From Amoebophrya sp. A120 (taxonomy: Eukaryota > Protista > Dinoflagellata), in the NCBI GenBank assembly GCA_905178155.1, contig CAJINV010000016.1:773386-837385 (forward strand): a stretch of DNA of 64,000 bases. The letters are read 5' to 3'. How positions within the stretch are numbered: the first letter of the stretch is position 1; the number at the start of each line of letters is the position of its first letter. Shown in pieces: positions 10,471 through 57,500 of this stretch. The notes under the pieces are model-generated. The model was given only the letters and a program-made list of their open reading frames with translations. It had not been told where the DNA came from and ran no database searches. The position numbers and the translations under genes were made by a program.

Positions 10471-13400
10471 ATGAGCATGCGAGGCAAAGCAGTTTCGTCC
10501 TCCAGTGGGGCAACCTCCGGGGGGTCTCCTGGCAGCCCTAACGCCTCGGCAAGGCAACGAGGGTCGAAGGAGCTTGACGAGACCAGTACCAGCCCGACAA
10601 ATCGCGGGTCCACAAATGGCGCAGCGCGAACAAGCAAAGAGATCGTCGCGCCAGCATCTTTATCAAATGCAGATATGTCTGGGTCTGGAAGAGTCATGCT
10701 GCTTTTGCATGACAAAGAAGGTCTGGCATGGGAGCTCTAGCATCACAGGTTTCGAGAAGCTTCCGCTATGCCGAATCCGCATGGCAAATGCCCCATTTGG
10801 GTGACAGAAAGTGGGCAGCTTTTGCTGCCTGCGCATGAGAGATTTTTATGCGTTGTGAAATGCGCATCACAACCACAAGTTTGCATTCTTCCAGACCCAG
10901 ACATATTTGCATTTGATAATCTTCTAGCGCGGTTTCCTATGCGGTATCAAGCGGGACATGATGGAAAACAGTGGCGTTTTTATTTGGTTTCACTTCAGTA
11001 CTTTGTCGCGTTCGTCGCAACAATAATTTATAACTTTCTGCCGCCCACTCAGTGTCAGTATCATTCAGCTTTCGAAAGTTTGCAGAGGCTCAAAAGACTT
11101 GGATTATAGGTAAATCCATCCTAGCTCCTATGCGCTGGCGCCCCACAAGCTGCATGTGAAAACGCTTGGTTTCACGACGTCATGATGTCCGTTCCATACC
11201 CTACGACGATATTCTACATGAGCCTGAACTTTGCGGTCTCGGTGCTGATTGTATCAAATGTAAAAATGTCTGGGTCTGGAAGAATGCGCGATTTGTCATG
11301 CAGCTTTTCCATGACCCATGAAGTGTGGAATGCAGGACCTAGCATGACAGATTCTGTGCGATCTCTCTCATGCCCATCCTGCATGAGAAACTCCCTCCCG
11401 ACTTGGTCAAAACTGGACGACTTTTGGTAATCACGCAACACAGATTTTTGCATGTTTCAGATTTAGCATGACAAGCTGCATTCTTCCAGACCCAGACATT
11501 TTTACAGTCGATAGATTGTGTGGGTAAACAAATTCGCCTTCCAGCAGGGGTTCCGTATCAAGATGAAATTTGTGCTGATCCGGGATCTTGTGAAAAATGT
11601 GGTGATCTTGGTGATGCTCTTACTTATTTTCGTCAGCATGGTGAAGAGGTAAAGTAGATAACAGAAGATAAGACGGAAAGATGACAGAGGATAAGACGCC
11701 GCACGCACACTGGATCAGGATATTGCCCATTTGTTTCATACGCCGATGGAACATTTCCCTGACGACACTACATTTCCTGTTCACCTACATTGGCTTGGAA
11801 ATAAGCGCCAGGTTTTCATTTTTGGTCTTTGTTTTTTGATATGGGAAGAAAAGACTTTATGCTTAGTAGCTATGTCATGCGTTCGATGCGCTCCACCAAA
11901 ACCAGTGCCAGCGAGCGACGACTAGTTTACTGTGGACTGAAGAACTTCTTGATCGTCAACAGCACGTCCTCGCGCGGCGAATTTATTTGTTTTTCTGCAT
12001 AAGGAGAAACAAACTCTTTTTCTTTTAGGTTCTTCAACCTGTTTGAGCCCGTGAAGATCCCGGCCCGGAAAGTCGCCCCGATGTGCGCCGCCTTTTGCGG
12101 CTTTGTGGTGTTTAACAACCTTTCTCTGCATATCCTGAGTAAAAACGTACCCACACCAGAGTCAGGATGGGGATTTTGCAACACAAACCTAGGAGTTTTG
12201 TGAGTCACGCACGACAAGTTGCACTATGCAGTGTAGTGCAGGTTAGCAAGTGCAGCCGCATCGCAGATTCATCTGCTCATCCTGTTGACAGCATCACAAA
12301 TTCCAAAAAACGACTGGAAATGGCTCTCATGGGGATGCGCATTACAAGTCTTCCTGTCTTTGCAAATCTGCATTACAACTCTGGCGTGGGTACGTTTTTA
12401 CTCAGGATACTGCAGTACAACCCGGTCGGCGTGTACCAATTGTTGAAAGTGTTAACCTACCAAATGTAAAAATGTCTGGGTCTGGAAACTTGTGATGCTG
12501 GGCGGCGTCTCATGATAAGGCAACAGATTTCGGCTCAGCATGACAAGTTCCTGAGCTCCTAGGTGTTGCCTATTCTGCATGACAAACTGCGCTTCTGCAT
12601 CACAGAAAAGCGAAGTTCTTGGGTAACGTGCATGACAGATTTAAGAGTCATGCCAGACAAGCATGACAAACATGAACTCTTCCAGGCCCAGACATTTTTG
12701 CATTTGATATAACCACACCTGTCATCGTCGTTCTACAGAAAGCCACGCTTCCGACGAGCCAGATGCTGGCGCTGATCCCCACCTGCGTGGGCGTCGTACT
12801 GGCCACGGTGACGCACTTGGACGCCAACCTGCTGGGCGGCATCTTCGGCACCCTGGGCATACTCAGCACCTCCTTCTACCAAATCTGGGTCAAGTCAGAA
12901 CAGGTATAGAGTATTGCCATCGATGAATGATGTTGTGCGCTGCCCATGAGAAATTTAAATTTTTGCAAGCCAGCTGCTGCTCGACCAGCAGCTGCAGGGT
13001 TACATTTCATCTACCGTCAGAAGAAAAATTCGAAACCTGTCAGGACGCCCTGAAAGTGAGCGCTCCGCAGCTCCTCTACAACCAGAGCTTTTGGAGTTTC
13101 TGGGCGCTTCTTCTCTTATCTCCTTTCGTCGAAGAGGTTTTTCATGATACGGGAAGGAAAATTGACTTCTGTAGAAAAGAACTGCAGAACAAGAAAATGA
13201 AGTACACTGACTCCACGTGGTTGTAACTAAACACGGTTTCGTTGCTCTGGGATTTTTGCCACGACTCCCACATGTTGCAGTTCTCAGTCTGCATTTTTTT
13301 TCATTGATCTCTGCATTCATACATGGAGTAAGTGGTCGTGCTAGCTTTGGATGCTGCAGGTGCGGAGTCGGTGGCAAAACAAAGAAGCGTACCGCAACAG

Positions 13401-16400
13401 GACGCAAAATAAAGTGGGTACTTCACCAAAGAAGTCAATAGTTTTCCCCTCCATGAGAAGCCCAGATCCGCTCGTGGCGTGCAGCTGGGTAAGTTAGTAC
13501 TTGCAAACTCGTTTTTGTTACCTGTTTCTACAACTCCAGCCTTCTCTTTGGCATTTTTTCATGCTGATGTAAGCATGCTGATGCTGCTGAAGTCCAGATC
13601 TAAAATGGCTCCTGCGACGTTTCGATCAGTTTCACAGAAATAATTTTTCCATTTTCTCGTGCAGCACATCCATGTACTAGCTAAGAAAGTCAAAAAAAGA
13701 AGGTCCCCATGAAACAAATAACGACCACCAGGCCTCCTCACCCCTGACCCTAGTCGCCGTGGTCGGGTCCGCCGGCCTGGCGTTCCTCGTCAATTTGAGC
13801 ATTTTCCTGGTCATTGGAAAAACCGATGCGGTTAGCTACAATGTTCTCGGACACGCTAAATTGTGTTGTATTCTGATCTCCGGGTACCTAGTTTTCGGCG
13901 AGACGGCAACCTGGAAAAATTTGGCCGGGGTTGGACTCGCGGTTTGCGGTATCGTCACCTACACGCATATATCAAATGTAAAAATGTCTGGGTCTAGAAG
14001 ATTCTGAGACTTGTCATGCATGTTTTGCATGACCCAGGACGTCTGTAATGCACGCCCTAGCATCACAGATTTTTAGAGGGCTTCCTGATGCCTACTCCGC
14101 ATGACAAACGTCCTCCCCGCGTAGCACAATATGGGTAAAACACACGGAAAAGGAAGAGGCTACGACGGTAACAGTGGAGGAATGGAAAGGGAAAGAAGCA
14201 CACATGGCAACAATTGAAACGAGGCAGGACCACCTAAAGACAGAAGCTAGGGCAGAAGAGCGCAAATTCGTAGCGTATTGCAATAGCGCCATAAGAGCGA
14301 TAGAGATGGCGAAGAAGCAGCAACGCGAAGGGAGTGGAGGGGTGTGCGTGTGTTTGCTGGATTGCGATGAGATGAAAGAGAAAACGCGGGGGCTCCTGCG
14401 GAAGGAGCAAGGGATAGCGCTAGAGCTGCAGGAGGAAATAGAAAAAGCAGAGAAACAGAGCCCGGGCTTAATAATAGCCAGGCGCTGGGGGAAGCAGAAC
14501 GCGCCCAAAACCCTCGCAAAGAGAGAAGCACAAGGGGGCTATACAGAAGTGATACCCCTGAAGGTGGCAAACGTATCGAAGCACGATGACGAATATTCCG
14601 AATGGGTGCAGTACGACTTCAGTGCAAAAAATGTACCGACAAAACCGATCTGGGAATGGCCGGAAATGTCAAAAATAGAAAGACAAGTGCGCATCTACCG
14701 AAAGATAATAAGAGATGAGAAGAAAGAAGGGCAGATAACGGAGAAGGGAAGTGGTGGCGGCGAGGATGACAGAAGGAAAGGCAGCACAAGAGAGAGGAAG
14801 GGGAAGGGGGCAAGTAGCAGCGCGAAGGGAAACCCTCACCGCGGAGAAGGCCCCAAGGGGAACACTGCTCCAACAGACATGAACAGGGAGACAGACAGCG
14901 GGTCACTAGCGGAAACAATCAGAAAAATGGTAGAAGGGGAAAAGATAAGAGCACACAAAGAAGGAAGCGAAATGCTGCAGAGGGCGCTGGACATAATAGG
15001 AAGGGGCACAGACCTACTAGAAACAGCTGAAGACGTTCCACAAGAATCCCGCGCGACGTCGAGCAGCAGTACTAGGAGAGGCGTGCTGGAAGTAACAGAA
15101 GAGCGAAATGATTCACAAAAAGAAGAAAAGCGTGAAGAAGAAGAAGAAGCGTGCTTCTACTCGGCGCGGGAGTATCAGGGAAGCCGTCCAGGATACGCAT
15201 TCAAACTTGGGCGCTTCGGTATGGGGTATCATAAGGATCAAGGACCGGAGGAGGCAACGCGGGAAATGTTCCAAAAAATTACAATAGGGGGGCTAGGAGG
15301 CAAACTGCCCAAGAGGGAAGCCGCGAAAGAACAGAAAACAACGAGCAAAGAAATCGCAGAAGCTGCGACGCGACACGATAAGAAGACGCAGCAAGTGAGC
15401 CAAGTGCCGGAGGAGGGGGAGGAAAGAAACAAAAGCGACACCAAGAGAAGCAGCCGAGCCAGGCGGAGAGGGGGGATTTGGAGGACTGAGACAGAAAATC
15501 GCCCAAGATAAAAGCGAAACAGAGATGGTGAAAGAAGTTAAAAAGGAAGAAAAAAAATTCCCAACGCTGAAGGAGCTGAACGAGAGAGACCGGAAGCGGG
15601 ACCGCGAGGAGGCAACGGAGCGGGAGGAGGAGCGCAAGCGGCAGGAGGAAAGGAGATCTGTGAAAAGAATGAAATATGAAAACCCATTACAAGAAGAGTT
15701 AGCCAAGATGTATAGGGACAAGCACTGAGAAACAATGACGAAGGAAATATATTAAAAAAGAAAGAGAACAGAGAACGAAACAAAACGACGCGAAATGGGG
15801 GCGCAGTGTTCTGGGTGTCGGCGGAGGGAAGAGGAAACAGAGGAAAGAAAAAGAAAGAGAAGAAAGAAAGTGGTCCCTTTGGTTGTCTCAGCTAGCCCGC
15901 AAGGGCTCCGCTCCCGCTAGCTGAAAAGCACGGCGCTGCTAATCATCTCGTCCTCGCCAGCCGGTAGGCACGGCGCTGCTATCCTGTCGTCGTCATTGCG
16001 TCTTTTTTACTAGCGAGTGGAAACAGGGTTGCTAAGTCAAAGACTGCGCTAAGGCAGCGCCCCCCCTTCCCCAAGGGGTCCCCCCGGGGCGGGCGCGGTG
16101 GCGGCTCTGCCAACGCGGAGCTTCAAAGTCCGACTCTACCTATGCGTATACAAAGGGTGCGCGGAAATAGGTCGGTAAAGTGCTTGAAAGGGGCATGCTT
16201 TGGGGTTGCCCGTCATCGTGATAGGGTCAACGTGTGTGACCAATAGACCCCCTGTATATCTAGCGCGCAACCGCAGCAGCGTTCAAAGTTTGTAAGAATA
16301 ACCCAACAAGGCAACGCTGGAGCTCCACCTTGCTCGCGGGCTTGGATGGTAAATCAGGTCAGCCACATCTAGCGCCCACTGGCCGTGCACGCGTAAGAAA

Positions 16401-16745
16401 TCGGAAACGGTTCGGCGGATGCGGTCGGGTGGTGCCTGTAGGACGTGGAACGGGTGTCCACCTAGGGTATTGGCAGAGGCTAGATCTGTTCTAGCGCCAC
16501 GGTATTGGCAGAGGCTAAATCTGTTCTAGCGCCACCCTGACAGGAGTCAAATGTCAAAGCGATACGATACGCGTAGCACGAACTAGACTCCTGGCTCTTG
16601 CTGGTCATGCAATACAGATTTTTTTAGAGTCCAAAGTTAGTATCACAAGTTCCAATCTTCCAGACCCAGACACTTTTGCATTTGATAGCATCTAAAGATA
16701 ACCGCCGGGCAGAGCGCTGCGACGGCGGGGAAGAAGGGAAAGTGA
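10471..16745 (+). CDS. SLC35E3: Nucleotide-sugar / TPT-family transporter, SLC35E3-like
   Basis: Spliced translation: YMSLNFAVSVLIVWVNKFAFQQGFRWNISLTTLHFLFT...[35 protein letters not shown]...STSFYQIWVK...APQLLYNQS...AFLVNLSIFLVIGKTDAVSYNVLGHAKLC...YTH(L/I)KITAG...KKGK*. Six introners; the start and first exons are less certain. Confidence 0.85.
10661..10918. mobile_element. Introner family A
   Basis: DR atctt/atctt; interior is the reverse complement of 56886-57143. Confidence 0.9.
11252..11513. mobile_element. Introner family A
   Basis: DR gattg/gattg. Confidence 0.9.
11556..11740. mobile_element. Highly degenerate introner
   Basis: TAT...ATA, DR ttccg/cgccg; removal gives GFRWNISLTTLHF. 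Confidence 0.65.
12131..12409. mobile_element. Introner family B
   Basis: DR ctgca/ctgca; splits NLSLQ|YN. Confidence 0.92.
12458..12709. mobile_element. Introner family A (TAC start)
   Basis: DR taacc/taacc; splits KVLT|TP. Confidence 0.92.
14129..15511 (+). CDS. 5'-truncated purine-rich ORF carried by the nested element
   Basis: The frame is open from the insertion boundary to TAA at 15511; Lys/Glu/Arg rich; contains FYSAREYQGSRPGYAFKLGRFGMGYHKD. No RT or transposase motif seen. Confidence 0.55.
   Translation: MWVKHTEKEEATTVTVEEWKGKEAHMATIETRQDHLKTEARAEERKFVAYCNSAIRAIEMAKKQQREGSGGVCVCLLDCDEMKEKTRGLLRKEQGIALELQEEIEKAEKQSPGLIIARRWGKQNAPKTLAKREAQGGYTEVIPLKVANVSKHDDEYSEWVQYDFSAKNVPTKPIWEWPEMSKIERQVRIYRKIIRDEKKEGQITEKGSGGGEDDRRKGSTRERKGKGASSSAKGNPHRGEGPKGNTAPTDMNRETDSGSLAETIRKMVEGEKIRAHKEGSEMLQRALDIIGRGTDLLETAEDVPQESRATSSSSTRRGVLEVTEERNDSQKEEKREEEEEACFYSAREYQGSRPGYAFKLGRFGMGYHKDQGPEEATREMFQKITIGGLGGKLPKREAAKEQKTTSKEIAEAATRHDKKTQQVSQVPEEGEERNKSDTKRSSRARRRGGIWRTETENRPR
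16466..16535. repeat. 35-bp tandem duplication
   Basis: ggtattggcagaggctaratctgttctagcgccac x2. Confidence 0.9.
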
Positions 16746-17292: not shown

Positions 17293-17340
17293 GATAAAGA
17301 TCCCGAAGTATAGAGGGATAAAGATCCCGAAGTATAGAGG
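17293..17340. repeat. 24-bp tandem duplication
   Basis: gataaagatcccgaagtatagagg x2. Confidence 0.9.
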
Positions 17341-19520: not shown

Positions 19521-22500
19521 ATGCCGCCACGTCTGCAACGTGCGAACTCGCAGTCTATTGACGCGCAGCAGGTTATGCAGCGTCTGTCGACCGTCGAGGA
19601 CGATGTTTTGAACTCCCGTGATCACGCCGGTGGCGAAGGCGCAGTCGGCCAAGCCACGCAGCAGGGGTAAGACTTATATCAGTACTGGATTTTCTAATTC
19701 TAAACCTTGATACAAGATGATGTGCATAGAGATGAAGCATCTTTTTTCCACTATGGCGTCGTGTGTTTGTCGTCGCTGATTCAACATCTTGTTCGCCTTC
19801 TGTGTTTATTGTATCGCTGTCGCATCAAAATCAAAAACACCTTGATAATGAACAACATAACACGACAACTTGTAGGTGCGACCCGACGGGGTGCTTTGAG
19901 GGCATCTTCGGTGGCGCCTCGGACGTCGCGGACGACGGCGAGGTCGATGTGGTCCTGGTCGGTGGCGGGATCATGTCCGCCACCGTCGGTGTGCTGCTGC
20001 AGCAGCTGGAGCCCATATCCTAGGTAAAAACGTTCCCACCTCAGAGTAAAGATGGGGATTTTGCAAGACAAACCTACAAGTTTTGGGCGTCACGCATGAC
20101 AAATTTCAGTTCGTACTGTAGTGCAGATCAGCGTGGGCAGACGCATTACAAATCCATCTGCTTATCCTGTTTACAGCATTACAAATTTCAAAACACGACT
20201 GGAAATCATGCCTATCATGGGTATGCGCAACACAATTGTTCCTGTCATGCGAAATCAGCATGACAACCCTGAGGCGGGGCCGTTTTTACGCAGGATAGCC
20301 CACCTGGAAGATCCGCATGTACGAGCGGCTGTCGCAGTGCGGCGAGGAAGCTTCCAATGGGTGGAACAACGCGTATGGAGTTCTCAAATGTTACATTTTC
20401 AATTGTTACATGATTTGTCATGCAAAATTCCAACCGAAATCGACACGATCAAGCTGCTCCGCATGACAAATCCTCGAAAGGCCAAACAAGCTGAGAAACT
20501 GTTGCAAATCTGTCATGCAAGACGCGGAAGGTCACCCCGTCCACGTTTTCCATTCTTGCATCACAAATTCATGGAGCTATGCCGTTCCGGAGCCTGTGGA
20601 GGCTTGCCTCCTCAGCTATGCTGGACAATGGCAATGTCGGTGCGGTTGTTTTAGCATCACAAATTCATGGAAAAGTTGAGAATGTAACACTTGAGAGCGC
20701 CATAACGCGGGCACCGGGCACGCCGCGCTGTGCGAGCTGAACTACACCCCGGAGGTGAAGGGCGAAATCAACATCGAGAAGGCGGTGGCTATCAACGAAA
20801 AGTTCCAGGTGTCCCGCCAGTGGTGGGCCTGGCTGGTCACGCAGGGCGTGCTGTCGAGCGACACCGCGACCTTTATCAACAACACCCCGCACATGACTTT
20901 TGTGCACGGGGAGAAGAACGTCGACTTTCTGCGCCGCCGGTTCGCGTTGCTGAAAAAGGAGCCCTATCAACCGCAAAAATGTCTGGGTCTGGAAGATTGG
21001 AACACTTGTCATGCACATTTTGCATGAACGATCATGCCTGTAATGCATAACCTAGCATCAGAGATTTTGCGAGGGCTTCCTGATGCCTATACCCCATGAG
21101 GAATACCCCCTCCGCGTAGCATAAACTGGACTCCTCTTGCTCCTTACGCAATGCAGATTTTTTTGGAATCCAAAGACAGCATGACAAGTTTCATCCTCCC
21201 AGACCCAGACGTTTTTGCAGTTGATAAGTTCCTGTTCTCGGACATGGTCTATTCCGAGGACTCCCGGCAGATCAAACAGTATTATCCAAGCAAAAAACGT
21301 TGTTAGTGTAAATTTGTGATGCGCAACCTGCAAGATGATTGCGTCTGTCATGCTTGGCATGCGTCGTAGGGTCCAATAAAGGGCGTTTTCACGTACTATC
21401 TGCGCATGACAGGTTTTTGCTGTCATGCCAGACAAATTTGTAATGCTGTTCCTCCAAAAAAGTTACACCTACAATGTTTTTTTCTTGGATAAGTATAGAT
21501 AAATAGCTAGTTGGTCGTGTCGGATTCGTATGCATTCGGTTTGCTGGATTTGCGTATTTGCTAGTGATGCAGCTACAAATGCAAGTTTTTGTCATGCGTG
21601 TGTTCTTTACATCCATGGGACGCGGCTTCTTCGTGTGCTGTCATGCAAAAAGAAGGCAACTATTAAAACTAAAACTCCAGGTGGGCCCCGCTCCTGTACT
21701 CCGGCCGCCAGGGCAACGAGCCGATTGCGTGCACCTACTTCCAGAAGGGCACGGACGTCGACTACGGTGCGCTGACCAAGCAGCTGGTCACCGGATTTGT
21801 GCGCAACGGCGGACAGGTCCGCATGAATCACGATATCAAGGCCCTCGAGCAGATGCCGGACAAGTCCTGGAAGGTCACCGTCTACAAGCGCGACTTGAGC
21901 GCCGGGAGGCTCAGCGCCGTCAAGGCGAAGGTATAGTACTCTAGATGGACAGCTGTCATAGTGTTTTTCTTTTTCAGCGAGGGGGTTGAGGGTATAGGAT
22001 TTAGAGTGCACCACAAGCTTCCTACTAAGTAATATTGCTGGTTGAACATGAAAAACAAATCCTTCACACCAGTTCATCTTCGTCGGTGCTGGGGGTGCAT
22101 CGCTGCAGATCTTGCAGAAGTCGGGGATCCCGGAGATCCGCGGTTTCGGCGGCTTTCCCATCAGCGGCGAGTTCTTGGTTATGCAAAGAAAAAACTGTTT
22201 CACTGTGAACTTGTGATGCAGAAAATGGAACACAAAACCATTTGTCTTGCTACACCTGCAAGGCAGTGGATTTTCAAGCTTCTTTTCCCTTGGGAAGCGC
22301 GCATGGCAGATTTTCAGTGTCATGCGTAACAAACTTGTGATGCGGATCTTGCAAAATCATCACAGTGAAACAGTTTTTTCGTACGATATTGGTGTGCCAG
22401 AACCCAAATATCGTGAAGCAGCACCCGGCCAAGATCTACGGCAAGGCCGCCGTCGGCGCGCCACCCATGTCCGTGCCGCACTTGGACGCCCGAATCATCG

Positions 22501-23329
22501 ACGGCAAGCCCATGGTGCTCTTCGGACCCTATGCCGGCTTTTCGCCACGGTATGTTTACTACATTTTTGTTCTACTTGGCTATGGATGCGTGCTGCTGTG
22601 TGTGTGTTGCATGACTTTTGTCCTTATTTCTCATAGACCACAGCTCCATCGTGTTAATAAAGAGTTACTTCCATCAATTTGCAGGTACCTGAAGACCGGT
22701 TCTTTGACCGATATGTTTTCCACCCTGCGTCCGCACAACATCCTCCCCATGGCCGCCGCGGGCCTGCAGAACTTGGACTTGACGCTGTACCTGATCAAGG
22801 AACTCATGGCCTCCAAGGAGAAGAAGCTCCAGGCTCTGAAGGAGTTCATTCCGGACGCGCGGGCGGAGGACTGGACCATTGTCACCGCGGGGCAGCGTGT
22901 GCAGGTCATGAAGGCCGACGCAAAAAAGATAGGTACTTACTACTATTTGAGGTGTGATGTATCTTGTCATGCATGAAAACAAAGCGTACAAACAAGTAGT
23001 CGTAGTACACGAAGATGATTTCTTGTATAGCTCCTCTACAACGGTGGTGAAACTTCTGCGAAAATAACTGTACAGGTATTCTGCAGTTTGGCACCGAGGT
23101 GGTGGCCTCCGCCGACGGAACCATTGCGGGCTTACTCGGCGCTTCTCCCGGTGCGTCGGTGTCAACCCAAGTGGGCGTCGACGTTTTGTTGGGCTGCTTC
23201 CCGGACCGGGTGGCCGCCTGGACCCCGAAGTTTAAGCAGATGATTCCGTCCTTCGGCACCGAGCTCAGCTCGAACCCGGCCATGGCAGAAAAGATCATGG
23301 AGGCCAATGCCCGGATCTTGAAAATCTAA
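19521..23329 (+). CDS. mqo: Malate:quinone oxidoreductase (FAD-dependent, bacterial Mqo type)
   Basis: Motifs [100 protein letters not shown]. Five introners plus GT-AG introns. Confidence 0.95.
20016..20297. mobile_element. Introner family B
   Basis: DR gccca/gccca. Confidence 0.9.
20374..20704. mobile_element. Introner family G (TIR TATGGmGTTCTCAAmTGTTACATT) with a 78-bp nested insert
   Basis: DR acgcg/acgcg; splits WNNA|GTGH. Confidence 0.9.
20965..21226. mobile_element. Introner family A
   Basis: DR agccc/agttc; splits KEP|LF. Confidence 0.88.
21283..21491. mobile_element. TIR element at the donor site of a GT-AG intron
   Basis: tatccaagcaaaaaac...gttttttttcttggata, DR agtat/agtat. 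Confidence 0.8.
22180..22388. mobile_element. Introner family H (TIR core GAAAAAACTGTTTCACyGTGA)
   Basis: DR ttggt/ttggt. Confidence 0.9.
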
Positions 23330-24650
23330 TTTATTTCTACTGCGGTTTACTACTAGAGGATAATAAAGTAGTAGTCATAGGGAATGTTATGAATAGGAAG
23401 CACATGATTTGTTTCTTGTCAAAACAAGAATCTTCGGTTTCTCTTTCTGTAGTTTCATCAACAAAACGATAACGTAAAAGCAACAAGCAGTAGTGTCAGA
23501 ATCTTCTCGAAAAATCTATGCAGATATAGTATACCTGCGCACGACCACGACGAAAAAATATATGTACGATCGACTCTAACTAATTTTTGCGGTTTGTGAC
23601 GAGTGGTCACTCACAATCAACTAAGTTTCAAGCTAAGCGGCAACGGTTGCAGCCCCTGCACAGATGAGACCTGATTTAGGACAGCAAAAAACCTGGCTCA
23701 CAACCGAAATTCTGTAGGCTACTGAATCGTTTTTACTACAGGATGAAATGAAATGGACAGGAGCATTCTACATATTCTATTCAATCACACATGTTTTTGC
23801 AATATCTATTCTCTTCTTATCCGTATGCTGGTTCTATTGAACAATAATCTATCAAGCCCCTGTAACTCTATATGAAACCAGACGACACATCAATCTGCAG
23901 CAGAGTTGACCGCACTTTCTTGCCGCGCAATTATTTGCGCGGCAGGAATTTTGACGAAATCTCTGCTGCAAAAGCCCCCAAGTACCCTCTTCCTATGCCC
24001 AAACCTAACGAGGGTTGTCGCGGTCTGCACAGTAGACCGTAGGTTCGTCATCTTTTTATTTCGTCGTTTGCTTCATCACACACTTTTTTTACCATTTTTA
24101 ATATTCTGTGCGCCGTTACTAGTACAGCGACGAGCAAGGTCTTTAATAGTTTCCCCAAGTTTATTTGCTCTAGGGAGGTTAATACGGGAGTGGCAAAGAC
24201 TTCATAGTTTCTCCTCGAGGTTACGCTCTAGGAGGATGCGATATCACACGGGAAAAAAAAGATACTCTCTGCAGTAGACGTCTAAGGTGCTTCTAGAGGT
24301 CAAGCAGATTGTTTGTTGGCAGAAGATGAAAAAACAACTTGTTTCAAGCTCTTTTTCTCGGGAAAGAATGGTAAGAAAAAGCGAAAATAAACCCTCAGCA
24401 CTCGGCGATTTCGTACGCCGACGGTGGGGAACCAACCAAGACCTCGAGGTTTCCTGCTCGCGGGCAGCCGGTGGAGAAATAAATGTTCGTTGTCCTGTCA
24501 TGAAGATTAAGTACATTCAACGGTGTCGCAGTCTCAATATGCTCTTTCGCCGGACGTTCTTTTTGGCGGTTACTTTTCGTGGCAGGGGCCAATAACAAAG
24601 CTGATGTAGTTCCACAAGAAAGATAAATTCGTGACCAACAACATCAAAAA

Positions 24651-45631: not shown

Positions 45632-46190
45632 GTATTGCGAGATGCGATTCTGATCTCCGCGTTTTTGTCTTGCTGTGCAGTAGAAATTCTCAGTGCTGCA
45701 TGATCACAGATTCTGTGCATTGACTCGTCCTCGGAATTTGCCATGCATAATCTGAAGCACTCGTTTTATCACCATCAAGATTCGGGATTGAACCTGATGA
45801 CCGACCCAACCGTGGAAATAACATCGAGTGGACACGATGAGGCATAGACTCCGCTTCGTGGTCTCATGCAGTTTCATTACCTGTGGAAAAGGAAATCAAA
45901 TGGAACCTTCATGATATGTAAATGTAAGGCAAAAATTTGAATACCGGCGAACAAGGGCTTGTTGTAGGATTTTAGTGTCAGAATATGCTAGAACTAGTAC
46001 AAAAGTTTCTTCAAGCAGGTGTAGAATTTTTCGAAAGGAAGATTACGCGATATTTCTCAAGCATTTGCGGGTGGCCAATCGGCGAAATCTGATTTATGTA
46101 TGTTGGACAAAATGGACATCAACTTTCGGTTTCGATACCTGTAGGTACGTAAGTATCCTCCCAAGGATAACGCTTCATCTGAAAATAATT

Positions 46191-47989
46191 ACGGATGCAC
46201 CTTGGTGCATCATTTTCGAGTAAGTGACGGAAAGGACGAAACTTCTATGGAAAGGGCTAGCAGATCCCTGGTAAGCTAATGCAAGGCGGCACGACTGGAC
46301 CCGCAGTGGAGGCGGGGGTCGTGCCACGGTTTCTCTTATTTCGATCGGCTGGACCCAGTCTAGGTTGTGGTTGACTGGGGGCCGATGTAGGATTGGCACG
46401 GCAAGAGCCAGAGTTGGCGGTGCGACGACTGGGCCTGGTCCTTGTGAAAAAAGTTGCTGGTGGGTGGGCGCAACGACCTTACACTCGTCGCTTGGCTCTG
46501 GGCAATGTCGGTTTGAATCCGTTATCCTATGACCACGGGGGGTTTTTGGTTTTCGTTGGCTGCGCCGGGGCCAAGCGGGTGCTCTGCACTGGGTGTAAGG
46601 TCGTGCCCTCCTGTAACCTGGTAGGTGCTATGGACCGGGGACATTTTCACTAGGTTTTGGGGTCTTTCTCGACCCCCCTTTCGCGTAGTTTCGCGGCCTT
46701 GGACAAGGGATGGTCGCCGTTGTTGCGTCTAGGCTGTCTCTAGCATTTGGCTCGGCCCCGCATGGTATTGGTGCTGGTTGTTGGTTTGCGGGCGTACTTA
46801 CTTTCCTGCATCGTCCGGGGACGGAATCTTTCGGAGAGGAGGCTAGGGGCCCTCTCAGTCTGCCCGGGGAGAATCGTTTTTGTTGCCTCTGCCCCGGCGG
46901 TAGTGAAGGTCGGGCGCTTCGAAGCTGGGTATATGAAGCTGCTGAGTCGATTGCTTTTGCGCTGGGGGGTTGGCCGCGGCCGCGCAGACAACTTGCAGGT
47001 CTAGGTGTGGCCCACCTGGGTTCGCGAGGATTGGCGTTACGAATCAAGATCCCCTCTCCTGCGGGTCCGTTAGGGTTTCCCATGTATCCGGGCTGGCTCA
47101 ACGCGTCCACTTCATGTGGTAGGGCTTCTGAACCTCGGAGTGCAGCGGACAAGGGTAGAAGATTTTTCACGCACTGGCGGAGTCGGTTGCGCTCTGCGCC
47201 TTGGGTTCTCTGGTATAACGCTTGTAGTATTCATTCCCCGGCCAATTTGTTTGGTCTGCTCCCCGGGGGGCGGGATTTGGGTTAGAGAAGGTGGCCGCAG
47301 TTGCGGTGAAATTGTGCACGTTCGCGTCAAGGTTGGTCGTTGCCCTACTCGAAGGCCAGCACCATTATTGTACACACCCACGGGTGGAGGGTGGAGCCTA
47401 TTCATCTTGGACTTCAAGTCTTGGCGCGGTCTAGGGCCACAGGCGGCCACGCCACTTCGAAAACGCTCACGGCCGGGCTTACCGGGGATACCTCGGACGG
47501 TTTGGGGCTAGCTTTATTACGGATGCTGGCATCAAGCCCAGGGTGGTTGGGCGAGCCTTCGGCTGGGCGGTGCGCCACTAGCTCTCGTGGGGTTGCGCGG
47601 GTAGTTCCGTTCATGGGGTTGGCAGGCTGTATTCGCCACCAATTGGCTGCTGGCTGGGCCAGTCGGTTTCCTGGGCATGTGCCTCAGTTTTGCTTGATGG
47701 TTTGGGGTAATGGCCTCGGAGTCCTTTTTTTTTTTTTTCGCCTTTACTGGCCAGAGTTTCCCACCGGGCATGTCTGGCGCACCAGTTGCGGGGGATGGCT
47801 ACTTCCGGAGCGGTCTGTCTGTCGTAGCACAAGCGCCACTTCGGGGGGTGTTCGCGCTGATATCCGTAGCGCTACCGGCTCTGTCTGGGTTTTCCAATTA
47901 CGGGTCGGGCCGTAGTGAGCTGTGTAGGTGTTGGGGGCTGACTTTAGAGGGGATTGCGGGCGCTGCTACATCTATCGACTTCTTTTGCG
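46191..47989. mobile_element. 1.8-kb G/T-skewed insertion flanked by a perfect 48-bp direct repeat
   Basis: aggtacgtaagtatcctcccaaggataacgcttcatctgaaaataatt at 46143-46190 and 47990-48037. Confidence 0.7.
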
Positions 47990-48453
47990 AGGTACGTAAG
48001 TATCCTCCCAAGGATAACGCTTCATCTGAAAATAATTCAGGAAGACGAAACGCCAAGAAACTTCGCAGCGCTTGTCTCAGAACGAAAGAAAATCAATGTA
48101 GAGAAAGTGCTGCTGCGAGAAAATTGCTTCTCTTGTTGGTCTTGCTTGTTGTTCCTTGCTAATTAGCACTACAAACATACACCGGAAACTAAATTTCTTA
48201 CGATGCACCAGCGACGCACTGAAGGCTGAGAAATCTGTTTGTATCGTTTTGGAGCTGTAGGGAAAAGAATCGAGTGCGTCGCAACCTGAAAACTGAGCAC
48301 TTTGGAGCTAATTCTGGAAGTGTTTGCGGCTGCGCAGCTGTGATTTACAGATAGATGCCAGTTCTTTCGAGTTAGATTGTTATACGTACTGTTTGTTGTA
48401 AAAAGTTGTTCATATCCATCGAAAACAGAAGATCAAACAAAGCCAAAGAAAAA

Positions 48454-49843
48454 ATGCGGCCACTCTCATCTCCCCTCCGCCACTTCCGTCTGGCGTCTTT
48501 GAAAAAAGTCCTAAGTTGGTCCGCAAAAATCCTCCCACCAGCTATTCTCGTGAAGGACCAGCTCGGCTGTCTCTCGACCGTGCGGGGCCAAAGCATGGCG
48601 CCCTTGTTGAACGACAGGAATTACGGGATTGCTTCATCAACTTCTGATGCGGACCCCCGAGTCGACACGCAGGACCCCGGGCCGCTAGGAGAACAACAAC
48701 CATCCAACCCTTTTTCGAAACTGCAACATTTTCTTTCCCAAAACCTCCGGTATTTCGCCAACCACCTTTTCGACGATATTGTGCTGGTTCTTCGCCTATC
48801 AAATGCAAATATGTCTGGGTCTGGAGGAAGATGCGAACTTGTGATGCTGCATCTGGATTCTACAAAAATCTGTATTGCATGACCAGCAAGAGCAAGAGGG
48901 GTCCAGTTTGTGCTACATGGAGAGGGCATATCTCATTCGGAATAGGCATCAGGAAGCCCTCTAAAAATCTGTGATGCTCGGTTGTATTACAGGCGGAGGC
49001 GTCATGGGTCATGTAAAATTTGCATGAAAAGCCCTGCATTTTCCCAGACCCAGACATATTTGCAATTCATATCGGCTCGGACACGTGCCCGATATCCGCA
49101 CGGGCGACGTTGTCGTCGCGAAGGACCCGAGAAAATCCGGTCCCTGGGAGCGGAAAATCGTGAAGCGAGTCGTTCTTGTCGGCGGAGCGGGGGAGCACGG
49201 AGGAGGTGATAATTCTCTTCTTGGTGTTGTTGCAGACGATGAGGAAGAGCAGCACGAAGCGGCTTCGTTCGACCAGCCGAGTCTCGATGAAGGAACGGGG
49301 ACCTCCGCACGAGGACCCAGGACAACGGCAGCAGCGTCGGCCGCTGTTGCTGCATCAGCCGAAATTCCTAGAACCCTTGACCCCGAGGACGAAGGGGATG
49401 AAAGCGACCAACTGTTTCGAGGACAAGGACAGCTGCACGAACTTCACAAAGGCATCAAGAACCCACCTCGACGTCAACATGAGGCCGTCGTGAGCTCGGA
49501 AGTTGTGGAGATGCTGGTGTCCCCACCGTCGTCCTCTTTTTCCGGCGGCAGCAGAACATCAAGCGCTGTTGGTCTTGAGAGAGACAACAACTACTACTAC
49601 ACAACGACAAAATTATCGAGGGGAAAAAGTACTTCTACAGCTACGACATCAACAAAAAATATCCCTGATAACATTCCGACCGGGCGCTGTTGGCTTCTCG
49701 GCGACAACTTGGCGCTGTCCAACGATAGTAGGAAGTTCGGCCCGGTGTCAGTGTCTCTGATCGACGGGATCGTCGTTGCTGTTGTCTTCCCTTTCTGGCG
49801 CATGCGGTGGCTCGTAGACGAGGAGGGGAATTCGATAGGATAA
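48454..49843 (+). CDS. IMP2: Mitochondrial inner membrane peptidase (S26 family, IMP2-like)
   Basis: VRGQSMAPLLN (catalytic Ser), GDVVV...IVKRV (Lys), CWLLGDN...SNDSRKFGPV...VVFPFWR. One introner. Confidence 0.85.
48797..49071. mobile_element. Introner family A (reverse orientation)
   Basis: DR tcgcc/tcggc. Confidence 0.88.
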
Positions 49844-51826
49844 ACGTAGGACATAAACAACTTTTTCTGCAGTGAAATGATTCTTGTGCTGATCATGCGA
49901 CCAATGTTCATCATCTCCACTTCTGAATATAGAAAAAAAGGAAGCAAAGTCGAACTGTGTCCGTATCAGGTATAGTACGTACTCCTGTTTAATAGTGTAG
50001 AGGAATTGACAATAGTGAACGCGTGATCGATCATAGCAACCTGCTGACGACAAACGACGATGAAAGCTGGACCGTGAAAATGATTTCTGTGATTAAAAAC
50101 TCAGTGTCGTCGTGTTCCACCGTGGTATCACACGAATTTCACTTGTGCAAAGCGAAAGCTCATCAACTAGATAATAGATAAACATGACAGGAGGGGGCAA
50201 CTGTTTGAAAATATGGACTGAGTCTGAGCGATGCGATGTTTAAGCTCATTGAATGTGCCGGCGCGAAGCTAGTAAGAGTAGCCCAATTTTTTAGTTTCTC
50301 GACCTGTTCATCTTGGCTTTATTCAGTAGGTTCACTGAGGTGAAAATTTTGATGGGCCCGCACAACCAGTATCGTGATGTGCAAGAAGATCTAGCTCTAG
50401 TACAGGATGCATTTTAGTAATTTTTTCCGTGCTAATATCCCAGTTGTTTGGAAGATGTGCTTTGAGGAAATTAAACCGGTTCTTCTACATACAGCGGCAT
50501 AACACGCAGCGCAACATGTATGTGCTGCTGCACGAGCGGTAGTCGCATAATGCTTTTGTTGTTCTTGACACGACAAGAAGAACCTCTTTCCATCAAAAAA
50601 CTGAAAAACAGCGACAACCTGAAACAGCGGTGTGTAGTAGTGAGGACGTTATTACTAGTCTCTAGAGAGTAATAATTGCGCTACCTGGCCTGGGATTGGA
50701 GCTTTTTTGTTGAGGCGGAAAATCAAAGTAACAAGAGTATAAACTACATCTGTTATAATTTATTCCAATCAGATTTTCACAATTATGGAGTGCTTCATTA
50801 TCGCTTTTCAAGATATTTTGCTAGCACACCCACCTTATTAGTATCGGAGACAAGAAACAAAGAGGCGACTTGTACACTTTTCTTCTATACGACAGCACCA
50901 AAATATACAGAAAGCCGACACTGAACACAGAGTGAAAGTCAAACTGCCACTTAGATAAACGGAAGCAAGAGCAATTTAAGTAGACGCAAGTAGCACGAAG
51001 AACACAAGTGTAAAACCACGTATGAAAAAAATTTCCAATACAAGGATGTTGCTTCATAGTAAAGAAGAGGAAGCATTTTTGTTGTGACCACAAATGAATA
51101 TGCCACCTAAATAATACTTGAAATTTTTCCCACTAAACCAACACTATCTAGCCTCTACTAGAGATTGCTGGCCGTAAGAAAACAACAGCATTAAGTTCGG
51201 CGATCGAGATCGACCACGTCGTGTTAGGGTAAAAAAAATCTCCAAAGGCGGCTTCATCTTTCTGGAGTAGTAGGCATAATTGAAAATCCCACTTGGAACA
51301 CAGATACACTATAAAAATTCTTGGGTTCTGTCGCCCAAAAAGTCTTTATTTTTGGGTCGCGTAAGAACCTACACGACTGGTTGTATCCTGTGATCATTCA
51401 TCATTTTCATGCACTTCTACAGTGGCACGTCCACGTGCCGAGCCGCCAACCTTTTCATAGCACCCAAAACAGGTCGTGGCTGCAAGATTCAGAATCAGAA
51501 GAGTTGACAAGAACTCTATTACGCCCACCCAAAGAACCTGTACCTTAGCAGAATATAGTCCGGCAAAATTTTTTCCAGAATAATTTTGAAATCAAAGTTC
51601 CGTTTAGATAGCATGTTCATGATTTACAGCTCTGGCAGCCAAGGAGAACTTCTTTTATGTGGGAACTACGAGAAGGACCGGCATAAGGGGAGTACTACAT
51701 GCCATTCGAAATAATACACAAGTCAGTGACCCTTGACGTTGACCGGCAAACATCGAAGAAGCAAAAATGCTGTAGCCTACATCTTGATTTTTTTGCTCCG
51801 TGCTCGGGTAGTTGCACCAGTACACA

Positions 51827-52142
51827 TATTGTGAGGAAAAATCCCCCCTCCCCATATCGAAACGGAAATTTGTGATGCTGATTTGTGACCACAAAGAAAT
51901 CAGGTTTGTCTTGCGTACAAGGCAAACGGCACCCATGTGGCGCAGTGTTAGCCCAGTCTGTCATGCGTTTTCGCCTACGCCAGACTTGTTTCTCATGCGC
52001 AGCTGCTAGCCGGATGCGTACCCAAATGGGCTTAGAGTATGCCGACAAGCTCTTGCTGCAATACAAAACTCATTTGTGTACACAAATCCAGCAACACAAA
52101 TCGGCTTTTGAGTATGGGGTGGGGGCTTTTTTCACTTTGATA
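51827..52142. mobile_element. Introner family F outside any recognised gene
   Basis: DR acaca/acaca. Confidence 0.85.
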
Positions 52143-52959
52143 ACACAACCGCTCCGGTCTTCCATGCAAGCCGGGTACTGCGTACTCGCTGCCGGAGCAG
52201 AGCCATCAATGGAAATTATATTAGACGAGGCCTCTTTTACTTTTTAAGTACAACCTTTTTTTTCAGAAATAATTCAAGAACGCGTGGTGGTGCACGTGCG
52301 CCGTCTTTGGTACATGATTTTTTTTTCGACGAACGATAGATTCATCTCGACTAGAGGAAATGCAGGGGGCGTTTGTGCAACAATTCTATATCGTCGTTGA
52401 TTTTCATGGTGCGCGACAGACTCTCTCACACGGTGACACTTTACATTAGCTGTGCCGTGTTTTTTTTTAGAGTCGTTGCGCTAATACTAATAGGCGGTGC
52501 CTGCTACTGTCACGTTTCAGTGTTTCGGGTATAGAAATCTACTACCTTACGGAAGTTTATTTCTTGATACCGGAAGTAAGAACTAAGCTATTCACTCTCT
52601 CCTAGAAACCAACTTTTTCGATTCTTCGCATTTGCTTTCTAGCTGTGCTGCCGCGCTCTCACATTTGATTCTTAACGAATTGGGTTGTAAATAGCTGTTT
52701 GCAGTTGAAAATAAAGTAGCAATTCGAACGTTTAACTGTATCTATATGATTATGTTGAACACCTGGAGCTGTTGGCGTTGTTGTTGACTGACTTCCAGGA
52801 ATCCGGATGCACTTACCACAGGAGGAAAAAAACCTTCGAAGCACGACTGGCGCAAGAAACTTTAGCCACCAATGCTACACCTAGATCGGCAAAGATAAAA
52901 GTAAAACAGCGCAAACTTCTTTGCATGACAAGAAGGCCCACGTAAAGCCGGGTAATATT

Positions 52960-53029
52960 CATCACGCGCAACCTTAGTTAGCGTAGTAGCGGCGCATCAC
53001 GCGCAACCTTAGCTAGTGTAGTAGCCGCG
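52960..53029. repeat. 35-bp tandem duplication
   Basis: catcacgcgcaaccttagytagygtagtagcsgcg x2. Confidence 0.85.
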
Positions 53030-54586
53030 GAAGCAAAAATACGAATCATCGCGTTGCGTGTTGTGCCCGCTAAAGATAGGTGGTTGTCAAATACTACTTC
53101 GCGTAGAAGTTGACCCATTGAATATGTCTAGCGTGGGCGCAACACGGCACGATGACGTGATTTTGGAGTAATTTTGTTCTGAACTTGGTGAAACTGATGA
53201 ACTGACAAACTAAACCTGATAAAAACAACTACAGAGCGTTATTTTTTTTCGATGCAGTGAGAAGAGCATCCAACATTTGATAGATACTTTTATTGTGAAC
53301 AAAATCAACAGACCAAGACTGCCCTTTAAGACAAAACCAGCTCGAAGGACTGTAGTGAATGTTTTATCCTTACGGGCTTTTCCTTTTCCATTCCTAGTAC
53401 CAGAACCCCCGCCCCGGATTTCAATCCTCTTTCTATGCTTCTCCCCTAGCTGCCCTTTGAGACCTGATTGGTGGCACTATTCAACTCTTCTGGTTTATTC
53501 CACAAAGTTTTTTTTTCCTATTTTCTGCCGTAAATAGTACACCCACCTAGTCCGTCGAAGCATCTACGTGCAGCAAGTATCTATTTGCAGCACCTTAAGA
53601 TCTGTAGAAGTAAGTACTTCTTCTTTATCTATCCGCGCGTCTTTCATTAACGATCGTCTTTGTGTCGATTTTCATTTTTTTTTTTGGCGTGAAGCCAAGT
53701 CGGTGTCGGGCATCAAGAAAGCTCCAACGCCTATCCGAAGCTAGCAGCGCATGAAATCACTAAAAATTTAAACTCTTAAATAAACCTACTGGAATAGTAA
53801 GTATCTGAATCTGTCGAATAGGAGGAGTGCCCGCAATCATACATTCCTCGACGAAATGATACAGAATTTGTCGGGAAATAAGTGATTCTGGCGGCAAGGC
53901 TGAACTATAGTGCTCGACGTAGCTGCTGGGACATAATAATTGTTCTACTCGACTTGTTGTACAGAAACCACGATGGACCTCCACATCAGCAACGGAACTC
54001 CATCTTGATCCAGGAGTCGGAGCAGGGTGGTCGTGGAGGCTCATTTTCAACATCGCGGCGCTGGAGGCAGATAACTCGCTTGCTCTATTATTTACCCTGT
54101 CGGCAGGAAGTTTTTCTTGCGCACCATCGTCGACACACCCTCCACGTGTGCCGCAAAATCCTAAACCCCCAGCCGCCTCTACAACGACGTCTTCGTGCCA
54201 CGATTTTTTTAAACTGCGACAGTCAGCAGAAGTTGAACATCGGCGACAGGCGGTGGTCGTCCCGGATCATAGTAGTACGGTGCCACTACATGATGATCTT
54301 CATGTGCAGCTAGGAACAACATCTTCCAAACCGCTTCTGCAGCACACACGAACATCTTGCCCGTCGCAGAAGCACTCCTTCTCTTCGTTGCCGGAAGCGA
54401 ACATATTGCCGGAAAAAGACACCACCAAAGTAGCACCAGCACGACTTCCAGCTAGGACCAGTAGGAGCAGTACAACAACTTCCCGTGGTGCTATAGTAGT
54501 ACAACCACCTTTCGGTAGTAAGTTTCGCGCGATCATCATACACGGCAAGCAGAACTCTTTTCGAGAACAAAACGGATCACAAGAAG

Positions 54587-57500
54587 ATGAAGCGCAACCG
54601 TTCTGTGTCCGGGGTCCCCATGATCCCGGTCCTGAACCCGCTCCACAGCTACGCCCAGCTGTTCCCCACGTTCGGCAAGGGGCTATACCGTTCCCCGAAG
54701 GATTTTCCGCAGGACTGGGAGGTTCTGAAGCAGCTCGGCACGGCGAACTTCGGCAAAGTTTTCCTCTTGCGGCACAAGCCGACGAACCAGGAGTTCGCGG
54801 TCAAGCGCATGGCGACCGACGAGAGGAACGCGGACGGACACATCAGCAGAACGGGCGTGCTGGAGCGGTACACGCAGCGGGGGGAGGGCGAGAACGCGAT
54901 CGTCGAGCTCGGCGTCTACACGTACTGCTCTTTCGGGAAGAATTTAGACAGGAAATTGAACTACCTCCGGGAAAACAAGGATTTAGAGACGCTCGGCGAG
55001 CTGAAGGGCGGCGAAAGCATGGTCCAGGACGTTTTGGATCAGACGAAAATATGCATTGCAAATTATTTGAAATTATCCAGCGATCTGGGTTTTTTTGTCA
55101 TGCAGTGAATAGCAAGATAAAAAAGATCTGTGATGCATAGAATCAAAAACATGCCAGCTTTCTTGTCATTCTGTGAACAAATAACTCAGTTTATTCCCAT
55201 GCGTTTCACGAATGAATTTGCAAGAACAAGCTGCCTGAAAAACCTGTGAAGATGCTGTGATGCCGTAGTACAAGCGTCCTCCTCTCTGCGATCTTCATGC
55301 GAGTTGTACTAACTATCACTTAGCATGATCAACTACACATAGTTTAGTATTCCAGACCCGGATCATCATGATCGATGATAACTTCTGAATGCATAGCAAA
55401 AGGACATGGCGTTGGTGCTGGTGAACCGGGGGCGGAGTGGGGGCTTCAGTGACGTCATGGGCGGCACCAACGTGAACAACTTGCATCTATCGCACGAAAA
55501 AACTGTTTCACCGTGATGATTTTGCAAGATTTGCATCACAAGTTTGTTACACATGACAAAGAAAACTTGGCATGCGTGCTTCCTAAGGGAAAACACAGCT
55601 AAAAATCCAATATCTTGCATGTGTAGCAAGACAAACACATGTGCGTTCCGTTCTATGCATCACAAGTTTACAGTGAAACAGTTTTTTCTCGTGATAGCAT
55701 CTAGACGAGGTGTACTACAGCACACCCGCAGGCGCGAAAACCTTTGCGAAGAACCTGGGGAACGATCCCAGACCGAACGGCGACAGTTTGGTCATGGGGG
55801 AGGTAAACGTGCCCTTTGTCAGCGGGGGGAGTGACGCCATCATGCGGAACAAGTTCAACGTGCCCTTCAACGAGGGGGAGCAGACGGGCGCGCCGGACTT
55901 GAGCACCAACCTCGAGAGCACCGAACTGGACGACTCCGAGTACGCGCCGCCCTACTGGATGGAACACAAACCCTGTCCGAACCTGCTGCGCATGTCGTTT
56001 TGCCTCATGGACAACGAGTACGTCTACGTGGGCACGGAAAAGTGCACCCGCGGCGAGCTGTTCGAGCTTGTCGCGGCGAAGAAGCGGCTCGGCGAGGCGC
56101 TCTGTATCACACAGAAAAAAGCAGGCAGGTCATATTTGTAATGCGAAAATAAATACACAAGAAAAGTTTGCATATCCTAAGCAGGATGCTATGAGGCCGC
56201 CCATGTCAGATTTTTCTGTGTATTTATTTTTGCATTACAAATCTGCCCTGCCTGCTTTTTTCTGTGGGATACTCTGCCGGTGTTACCTGCGGCAGGTGTG
56301 CGAGGCCGTGCTGTGGCTGCACGACCGGGGCATCTATGAACTGCAAAAGTATCGTATTCGTATAAATGCATTACAAATTTCCTCAGCGTCAGAAATAAAA
56401 TTTGTAATGCAGACTTGCCTTGGGAACATGCAAGACCTGCATTTATACGAGTGCGATACTTTTGCACAGGATAGCATCGGGCACCGGGACATCTCGCTCG
56501 AGAACATTTTGCTCACCGACGAACCCGTATGGATGTGTCAGGTTTGAAATCGTCAAAGTTGAAATAGTTTGTCATGCATAAAACGGATACCAGTTAGACC
56601 TACAGTTTGTAGTCGGCGCATGACAAATTTTCCCGGCCCTGGAAGCGAGTCTGTCATGCGGTTTAGGGCAAAAGAGCTGCCTTCTGTCATGCTAGTTAGC
56701 AGCCCAACTTTTGACCCTTGCCAGGACTATGACCTGCCTCCCGTTGGTCCGCTGCAATAGAGTCACTTTTTGCATCGCATTTTATGCATTACAAATTATT
56801 TCAACTTTGACGATTTCAAACCTGACGCTTCCATAACCCGAAGACCGGTGTATCCGGCTGATGGATTTCGGGATGTCGTGCAATCTATCAAGTGCAAAAA
56901 TGTCTGGGTCTGGAAGAATGCAAACTTGTGACGCGCATTTCGGAACACACAAAAATCTCTCATGCATAGGTAGCAAAAGCTACTCACTTTCTGTCACCAA
57001 AGTGGGGGATTTGTCATGCGGGTTCGGCATTGCGGAAGCTTCTCGAAACCTGTGATGCTAGAGCTTCCATGCCAGACCTTCTGTGTCATGCAGAAACGTC
57101 ACGACTCTTGCTCTTCGAGACACAGACACTTTTACATTTGATACAATCTGTACCGCGAGCGCACCGACGACGAGCAGGCCGCAGCGGAGGCCGCTGCGGC
57201 GGCCGGGAATAAATCCACAGCAGACGGGACCACCCGGCTGACGGAAGCCAATCACGACGCCTCCGAGCTGCAGCCGAAAGTCGCGCGGACCGCGGGGAAG
57301 GTCCGACTCTCGGAGAGCGGGCGGGAGCTAGAAGACGTGCACTACTCCTATGACTTGCTCAAACGTGACAATCTCAAACGCTACAATAGAATGTGGAGTT
57401 TGTATTGCATGATGAGCATGACAGACTCGCACAGCTTTCCACCTTTTGCAATACAAATTTCGCCAGATTATAGTGGGGTCTGGGGCTCCGGAACTTGTCA

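Follow-up and report, generated by a model that had tools for sequence, protein, structure and literature searches.

We examined a 64,000-nt stretch of the Amoebophrya sp. A120 genome (contig CAJINV010000016.1, positions 773,386 to 837,385, forward strand; hereafter the window, with coordinates counted from its first letter), in which 62 introners, i.e. repeated mobile elements that form introns, were catalogued. The reading that we favour, at about even confidence, is that these elements, which resemble miniature inverted-repeat transposable elements (MITEs), lie in exons in either orientation and are cut from pre-mRNA at one register, 1 nt before the TAT that opens the element and 4 nt after the ATA that closes it, probably by a modified spliceosome.

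Nearly all of the 62 elements consisted of TAT...ATA between two copies of a 5-bp direct repeat, with lengths of 139–457 nt, apart from three longer ones that hold nested inserts. Five of the 62 were known only through RNA-like contigs: 7085 and 10945 from contig joints, and 43785, 44381 and 45539 from an inspection of the sequence prompted by an open length sum, which closed exactly once these three had been added. The elements were repeated in families, and they share the features of MITEs: they are short, non-coding and present in many copies, and have terminal inverted repeats (TIRs) with a target-site duplication (TSD) of constant length. Further elements were taken from a pattern scan that accepted at most two mismatches in the 5-bp repeat and covered at least 148 loci and at least 260,359 bases, the 80 named rows all coming from one assembly. 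This gave at least 248 distinct elements; 103 were dropped for want of a confident host strand, leaving 145, and 23 of these fit no family, leaving 122. All statements on these loci elements refer to those among the matches listed, and no locus among them was orthologous to the unique DNA of the window. The 5-bp repeat was perfect in 203 of the 248 loci elements and in most window elements, and decayed in 7085, 10945 and 45539.

The preliminary description of this DNA had held that the interiors of several pairs of elements are reverse complements, while all their host genes lie on the plus strand. Comparing the window with itself by blastn, we found that all of the named pairs are indeed reversed relatives, diverged (74–86% identical) rather than exact reverse complements. 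In particular, the subfamily A2 element at 10661–10918 (+; repeat ATCTT; TPT-family transporter gene, predicted intron 10660–10922) matched the reverse strand of its relative at 56886–57143 (-; repeat CAATC; in the plus-strand kinase gene) from 57143 to 56886, with 83.7% identity over 264 nt (E 1e-76). The element at 22180–22388 (+; repeat TTGGT; malate:quinone oxidoreductase gene) matched 55488–55696 (-; repeat GCATC; kinase gene) in the same way (22187–22388 against 55689–55488, 85.2%). The subfamily B elements 1165–1421 (+; repeat GCGTG) and 57986–58442 (-; repeat GTATT/GCAGT) matched in two reverse pieces (80.9% and 85.6%), separated by a nested insert of about 200 nt in the latter. Subfamily A was represented by 1904–2166 (+) and 44878–45142 (+; anoctamin/OSCA-like gene), and, reversed, by 8307–8567 (-; mismatched repeat CGCCG/CGCTG) and 48797–49071 (-; repeat TCGCC/TCGGC; peptidase S26 gene); the reverse-strand identities were 77.9% for 1904 vs 8307, 75.6% for 1904 vs 48797, 77.7% for 44878 vs 48797 and 75.3% for 8307 vs 44878. 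Finally, the region of the subfamily E element 1468–1732 (+), which faces opposite to 30895, 37649 and 57349, matched its reverse relative at 57349–57600 (-; kinase gene) with 74.4% identity. After the terminal 35 nt had been trimmed, the interiors of all six pairs tested scored 119–245 when reversed and 16–28 when forward, against shuffle maxima of 22–35 (200 shuffles for each pair).

Plus-strand placement of the hosts held for the genes with support from Pfam, an intron or the coding model, and held weakly for one gene. Nine of the 12 plus-strand exon translations matched Pfam (Mqo three times, TPT/EamA twice, Pkinase twice, Anoctamin and Peptidase_S26), the Pkinase, Anoctamin and TPT/EamA matches being below the curated cut-offs. 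The gene holding 8307 is on the plus strand according to a GT-AG intron removed in its contig as well as the coding model. The gene at 262–2500, which holds 1165, 1468 and 1904, was assigned to the plus strand by the coding model only (-12 vs -51) and has an open frame on both strands (229 and 233 aa). The model reached a leave-one-out accuracy of 68 out of 70 confident calls; it was trained on a malate:quinone oxidoreductase gene model with a one-base error (4 stops) and was not retrained after the correction. Measured against the predicted host strand, the 122 family-assigned elements among the matches listed faced the two ways in a ratio of 60:62, and we therefore rejected an orientation bias of 17:6 (p 0.035) seen in the window. 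One family of those matches was 7:0 in orientation (p 0.016, uncorrected, 12 families).

Removal was followed in assembled contigs of the runs X3, X4 and X6, which we treated as cDNA on account of the loss of ordinary GT-AG introns; silent intergenic bins had a depth of 0 in X3 and X4. Run X1 behaved as DNA, with a flat depth of 40–47 over intergenic DNA, GT-AG introns kept and a depth over repeats far above that of their flanks, while the raw-read run X12 contributed 6 reads only and was uninformative. Out of 14 runs listed, these five (X1, X3, X4, X6 and X12) were used, and two stretches of the window were compared, 39500–59499 and 4900–11300, which wholly contain 34 elements; 1165, 1468, 1904 and 22180 lie outside both. 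We found removal of 33 out of the 34 elements, including 48797 from one side only: X6 record 15 begins at 49076, with 38 letters lying elsewhere. Element 51827 (51827–52142) gave no sign of removal within the stretch 39500–59499. It lies in a region without a modelled gene and with low-depth contigs nearby, which may be an untranslated region or a non-coding transcript.

In the stretch 39500–59499, the gaps between contig pieces equalled the element lengths plus 5 each, exactly. A sum of 2177 corresponded to eight elements of the kinase gene, 56886 among them (X3 record 13, in which 57986 was also removed, nested insert included), and a sum of 565 to two further elements of that gene, including 55488 (X6 record 19). 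Likewise, 373 corresponded to one element and a 122-nt GT-AG intron, and 3093 to ten elements, including 44878, and a 114-nt intron (X3 record 9); 57349 and 57642 were removed in kinase-gene contigs. The stretch 4900–11300 gave 14 joints, of which 10 covered 11 elements, one was a GT-AG intron, and three lay inside or between elements. Among them, joint 8305>8572 removes 8307 in both X3 and X4, joint 6635>6789 removes 6641, and joint 10655>10919 skips 263 letters, i.e. the 258 of element 10661 plus 5, with 25 letters on its short side; this last removal was seen in a single low-depth X6 contig (depth 5.3). Joint 6142>6566 skips 423, that is, two elements plus 5 each: the subfamily D element 6144–6296 (+) and the next one, 8 nt away. 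In this double insertion (6144–6564) the repeats overlap, the register proposed here leaves a 3-nt exon, and both elements are removed.

As the preliminary description had implied, both orientations, and not only one, were removed in the RNA-like contigs. Opposite-facing relatives were even lost within one contig: 6144 and the reversed subfamily D element 6641–6788 (-) of the same transcript, 5840 and 6305, and, within one kinase transcript, 56886 and the subfamily A element 57642–57909 (+). Contigs that lose elements also lose ordinary GT-AG introns, and we infer that removal is from RNA. For 22180, predicted removal mends the reading frame, and the exon that follows matches PF06039.

A perfect direct repeat conceals the position of the cut, so that it can be read only where the repeat is mismatched or decayed. 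Twelve junctions were informative in this sense, and the only register common to all of them was 1 nt before TAT and 4 nt after ATA. The number of nucleotides allowed after ATA was 3–6 (5413), 2–5 (5840), 4–5 (6144), 0–4 (6641), 4 (7085), 1–4 (7814), 4–6 (8307), 4 (10945), 3–5 (40232), 4–5 (45539), 4–6 (48797) and 2–5 (55050); for 40232, 45539, 48797 and 55050 it was taken from one piece end, assuming removal of the element length plus 5. The mirror register (4 before, 1 after) was excluded by 10 of the 12 junctions, and since these included forward copies (5840, 40232 and 6144) as well as reversed ones (8307 and 48797), the register follows one direction and not the element.

Two of these junctions were unambiguous and placed the cut exactly 1 nt before TAT and 4 nt after ATA. 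They belong to old elements without a direct repeat: 7085–7316 (CTCTT/GTTCG; intron 7084–7320) and 10945–11198 (TGCGG/CCCTA; intron 10944–11202). The corresponding joints, 7083>7321 (depth 41 in X3 and 38 in X4) and 10943>11203 (X6, depth 5.3), had no shared letters. Because both were cut precisely with no usable repeat, the repeat appears to be an insertion scar, and not the required pointer that the preliminary description had proposed. We infer one register for all the elements. A fixed register independent of the direct repeat is apparently unreported; neither it nor orientation neutrality was found for the Amoebophrya class in the literature searched, most subscription journals being outside the reach of that search.

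GT together with AG was absent from all 62 elements in any of six registers; at the inferred register, an AG end occurred in 4 of the 62, and GT-AG in 4 of 206 elements (at most 4 of the 145 loci elements). The profile at this register was TAY at +2 to +4, ATA at -7 to -5 and a T-run at -18 to -15, with -4 to -1 free. T, A and a pyrimidine were present at +2, +3 and +4 in 62, 61 and 61 of the 62 elements, partly owing to how the elements were found. These positions agree with the native GT-AG donors: among the 19 ordinary introns, placed by hand and backed by contigs in three cases, GTA opened 18 and a pyrimidine stood at +4 in 15. Further inside the arms, A was found at positions 11–13 in 46, 50 and 54 of the 62 window elements and in 132, 137 and 142 of the 145 loci elements, in which the profile of the 3' arm is the mirror image of that of the 5' arm. 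Arm positions 1–3 and 11–13 were nearly always complementary, and 4–8 were loose.

An AG acceptor was considered from the excess of G right after ATA in the window (26 of 61, p 0.02) and rejected: the junctions exclude that register, and G was equally common at repeat positions 2 and 4 in the 145 loci elements. A paired test of G1 against C5 still gave p 0.03, which sense-strand composition can explain. No gain of G at +1 with decay was detected (p 0.10).

On the reading that we favour, the inverted repeat would supply identical signals whichever way the element faces. Donor positions +2 to +4 would be occupied by UAU, as in native GUAY donors, and the 3' cut would be placed by distance from AUA, or from a U-run inside the 3' arm, with no AG being read. 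Pairing of the arms may draw the ends together, with +1 and -1 to -4 left free. The offsets of 1 and 4 would together equal the 5-bp duplication, and because they sum to it the mRNA would be restored exactly. We favour a modified spliceosome because of the donor match, because the published account of Amoebophrya reports a near-complete spliceosome in which U1 and snRNP27 were undetected (PMC7789003), because loss of SNRNP27K in yeasts accompanies donors with U at +4 (PMC10581693), and because of the short branch distances in Stentor, where a branch A is proposed 6 nt from the 3' end (PMC9505925).

Several points weigh against this reading. Position +1 was random (A 17, C 15, G 17, T 13 of 62), and no covariation between +1 and -1 was detected in 206 elements (p 0.19), neither of which a standard spliceosome would tolerate; native GT-AG introns, moreover, do not have the 3' ATA of the elements. 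The motif GCAT[GCT]AC was rejected as a branch site, since it shows no strand preference (256 sense vs 263 antisense) and some reversed copies have almost none of it on their sense strand. Any lariat, branch point or link to the spliceosome is putative, and TAT...ATA may be fixed by the transposase alone, the donor match then being a coincidence. In addition, all the RNA evidence consists of assembled contigs from two samples of one study, whose RNA nature is a software guess and not a matter of record, and all the tested genes lie on one chromosome strand, which confounds transcript direction with strand. Aside from its rejection as a branch site, GCAT[GCT]AC was concentrated in GT-AG introns, where its density was about 15–30 times that in exons on each strand (1.7/1.9 vs 0.05/0.11 per kb). 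These introns may be ancient elements themselves; alternatively, the motif may have a role in the DNA itself.

A serious but less probable alternative, of a kind already suggested for the nonconventional introns of Euglena, is that a non-spliceosomal RNA nuclease and ligase reads the stem formed by the two ends, with one cut placed 1 nt upstream of the stem base and the other 4 nt downstream. Such an enzyme would account for the free terminal bases (40 different end-dinucleotide pairs in 62 elements), for arms that pair in 57 of 58 predicted folds, and for removal that is blocked neither by interiors of up to 807 nt and nested inserts nor by the predicted 3-nt exon; in those Euglena introns, too, the stem is inset from the two cuts by unequal distances (PMC12501133). 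Yet the arms showed no excess of G-U over A-C pairs (window, 35 vs 29 and 73 vs 55; loci elements, 57 vs 75), and the fold of the transcript strand was not more stable than that of the reverse strand (31 of 58). Arm positions 4–8 were often unpaired, as were TAT/ATA in 16 of the 58 folds, and in 7085 the two arms are shifted against each other close to the base, with only the outer TAT/ATA aligned ungapped, yet the cut keeps to TAT and ATA. This alternative also leaves the agreement with native donors at +2 to +4 without an explanation. The preliminary description had argued that directional splice signals force either hairpin-guided splicing or excision from DNA, with removal depending on the symmetric ends. 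That premise proved weak, since an element with TIRs presents identical linear signals at its 5' and 3' ends whichever way it faces, and orientation alone therefore proves no hairpin mechanism; its emphasis on the ends fared better, the orientation of the interior being irrelevant and the ends common to both. A hairpin may still play a role, although selection for pairing in the RNA finds no support from a G-U bias.

The other branch of that argument, in which elements leave the DNA in the manner of internal eliminated sequences (IESs) or by a transposase, the 5-bp repeat serving as pointer and RNA being copied from an element-free template, is in our view highly improbable. It fits the transposon anatomy of TIRs with a 5-bp repeat, one copy of which remains after removal, and rare events could hide, as 15 of 913 X1 joints were listed and contigs drop rare variants. 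However, X1 contigs enter elements at the depth of the flanks, and 55050, 43785 and 45539 are each spanned whole by single contigs. Moreover, the RNA-like runs contain unspliced contigs (7783–8067 at depth 7.2 and 6.4, and 55020–55400 at 3.8) while intergenic bins have depth 0; spliced contigs at depth 38–96 beside unspliced ones at 2–7 fit retained pre-mRNA. The DNA-like run keeping its elements and the existence of these contigs together make DNA-level excision unlikely, the two repeat-less elements are still removed exactly, and the repeat bases that are kept follow one direction whatever the orientation of the element. Strong hairpins and direct repeats are the usual setting of template-switch artefacts of reverse transcriptase, and the junctions were read from cDNA-derived contigs only. 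We nevertheless give very little credence to such an origin: the spliced form dominates (depth 41–96 vs 2–7), long conserved frames reopen on removal, and two junctions without any shared letters obey the register. Retained elements, in turn, would change the frame or introduce stops: all three frames contain stops in 23 of the 24 elements whose removed length is a multiple of three.

The elements are of a known kind. The text of Farhat et al. 2021 (PMC7789003) describes the introners of Amoebophrya A120 as repeated families of about 240 nt forming non-canonical introns, with a TIR of TAT, seven looser bases and at least three A, and direct repeats of 3–5 nt; a hairpin was proposed and the mechanism left open, the splice sites being called variable relative to the hairpin and the border left unknown. 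Compared by description, the window elements match them in TIR pattern, direct repeat, removal without GT-AG and families. What differs here is that a single register remains for the cut, that removal does not depend on the repeat, and that neither orientation is favoured; the text and legends of PMC7789003 give orientation for genes only. Its figures 3 and S19–S23 may contain further information on the register. In Aureococcus anophagefferens and Polarella glacialis, introners with TIRs and TSDs are described as forming introns in both orientations with the mRNA restored (bioRxiv 2020.10.14.339549; PMC10228655; both cite the introners of Huff et al. 2016, and PMC9860276 and PMC12130899 give further context). 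The window elements likewise make introns in either orientation. Unlike them, the Aureococcus and Polarella introners keep GT/GC/GA-AG sites, which either the element or the duplication provides, and are biased in orientation, against 0 of 62 with GT-AG and the even orientation found here. Introners in either orientation are thus known elsewhere, and the splice rule is what is apparently unreported.

The nonconventional introns of Euglena resemble the window elements in having no GT-AG, paired ends inset from the cuts, frequent direct repeats and a suspected MITE-like origin, and their rule, too, was defined by junctions that cannot slide (PMC12501133; PMC11282704). Their motifs differ, with CAG near +3, CTG at -8 and other offsets, compared with N-TAT and ATA-NNNN in the window, and Euglena offers circular products and genetic tests (PMC12501133) where the window elements are known from sequence and contigs. 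In Fritillaria borealis, transposon-derived introns with TIRs, TSDs and non-canonical ends are said to be removed by the spliceosome; AG-AC and AG-AT ends are preferred there, whereas terminal dinucleotides in the window are nearly free except for T at +2 (PMC11282704). Ciliate IESs are inserts of transposon-like character that lie in coding sequence between short repeats and are removed from somatic DNA with one repeat copy left. In contrast to these, the window elements are kept in the DNA-like run and occur in unspliced RNA-like contigs.

The result bears on how Amoebophrya-type introns are spliced with neither GT-AG nor a detectable U1. A register of N-UAU...AUA-NNNN, independent of the repeat, defines both intron ends exactly and allows gene models to be corrected, and with such ends the mapping of lariats vs circles, tests of small nuclear RNA pairing and stem-breaking tests become well posed. 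It would also explain why transposon insertion carries no cost, whichever exon site is hit and whichever way the element faces. We consider it slightly short of an even prospect that thousands of nuclear introns are removed by such a geometric rule, be it by an altered spliceosome that needs neither U1 nor G at +1 and AG, or by a new nuclease-ligase. If this is true, every insertion turns into a perfect intron, whatever its site and orientation, and host RNA processing makes a whole transposon family harmless. The surprise is limited by the fact that the elements and either-orientation introners were already known.

The protein kinase gene (54588–59014, +) contains ten elements in both orientations and, after their removal, 562 codons with no internal stop. 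The TPT/EamA-family transporter gene occupies 10471–16745 (+), and its element 13970–16687 carries a 2.4-kb insert (14130–16569) with a 468-aa open frame and a flanking repeat of about 10 nt. Other nested inserts were found at 29332–29455, 58121–58327, 42117–42650 and 38540–39540, two of them with ATG/GAT-repeat tails. Because 41914 and 57986 are removed exactly despite their inserts, introners seem to shelter other mobile DNA. The 1.1-kb element 38496 had no obvious transposase frame by eye, no family search having been run on it.

In the malate:quinone oxidoreductase gene (19521–23330, +), one element (21283–21491) lies inside the donor of an ordinary intron, and the donor bases are duplicated as its repeat. 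The anoctamin/OSCA-like gene contains a tandem duplication of an intron end and a short exon (38084–38495, 79% identity). Finally, a GC-rich, repeat-like stretch lies between genes at 34700–36700, and an intergenic insert of about 1.9 kb, at about 46144–48038, is flanked by direct repeats of about 48 bp.

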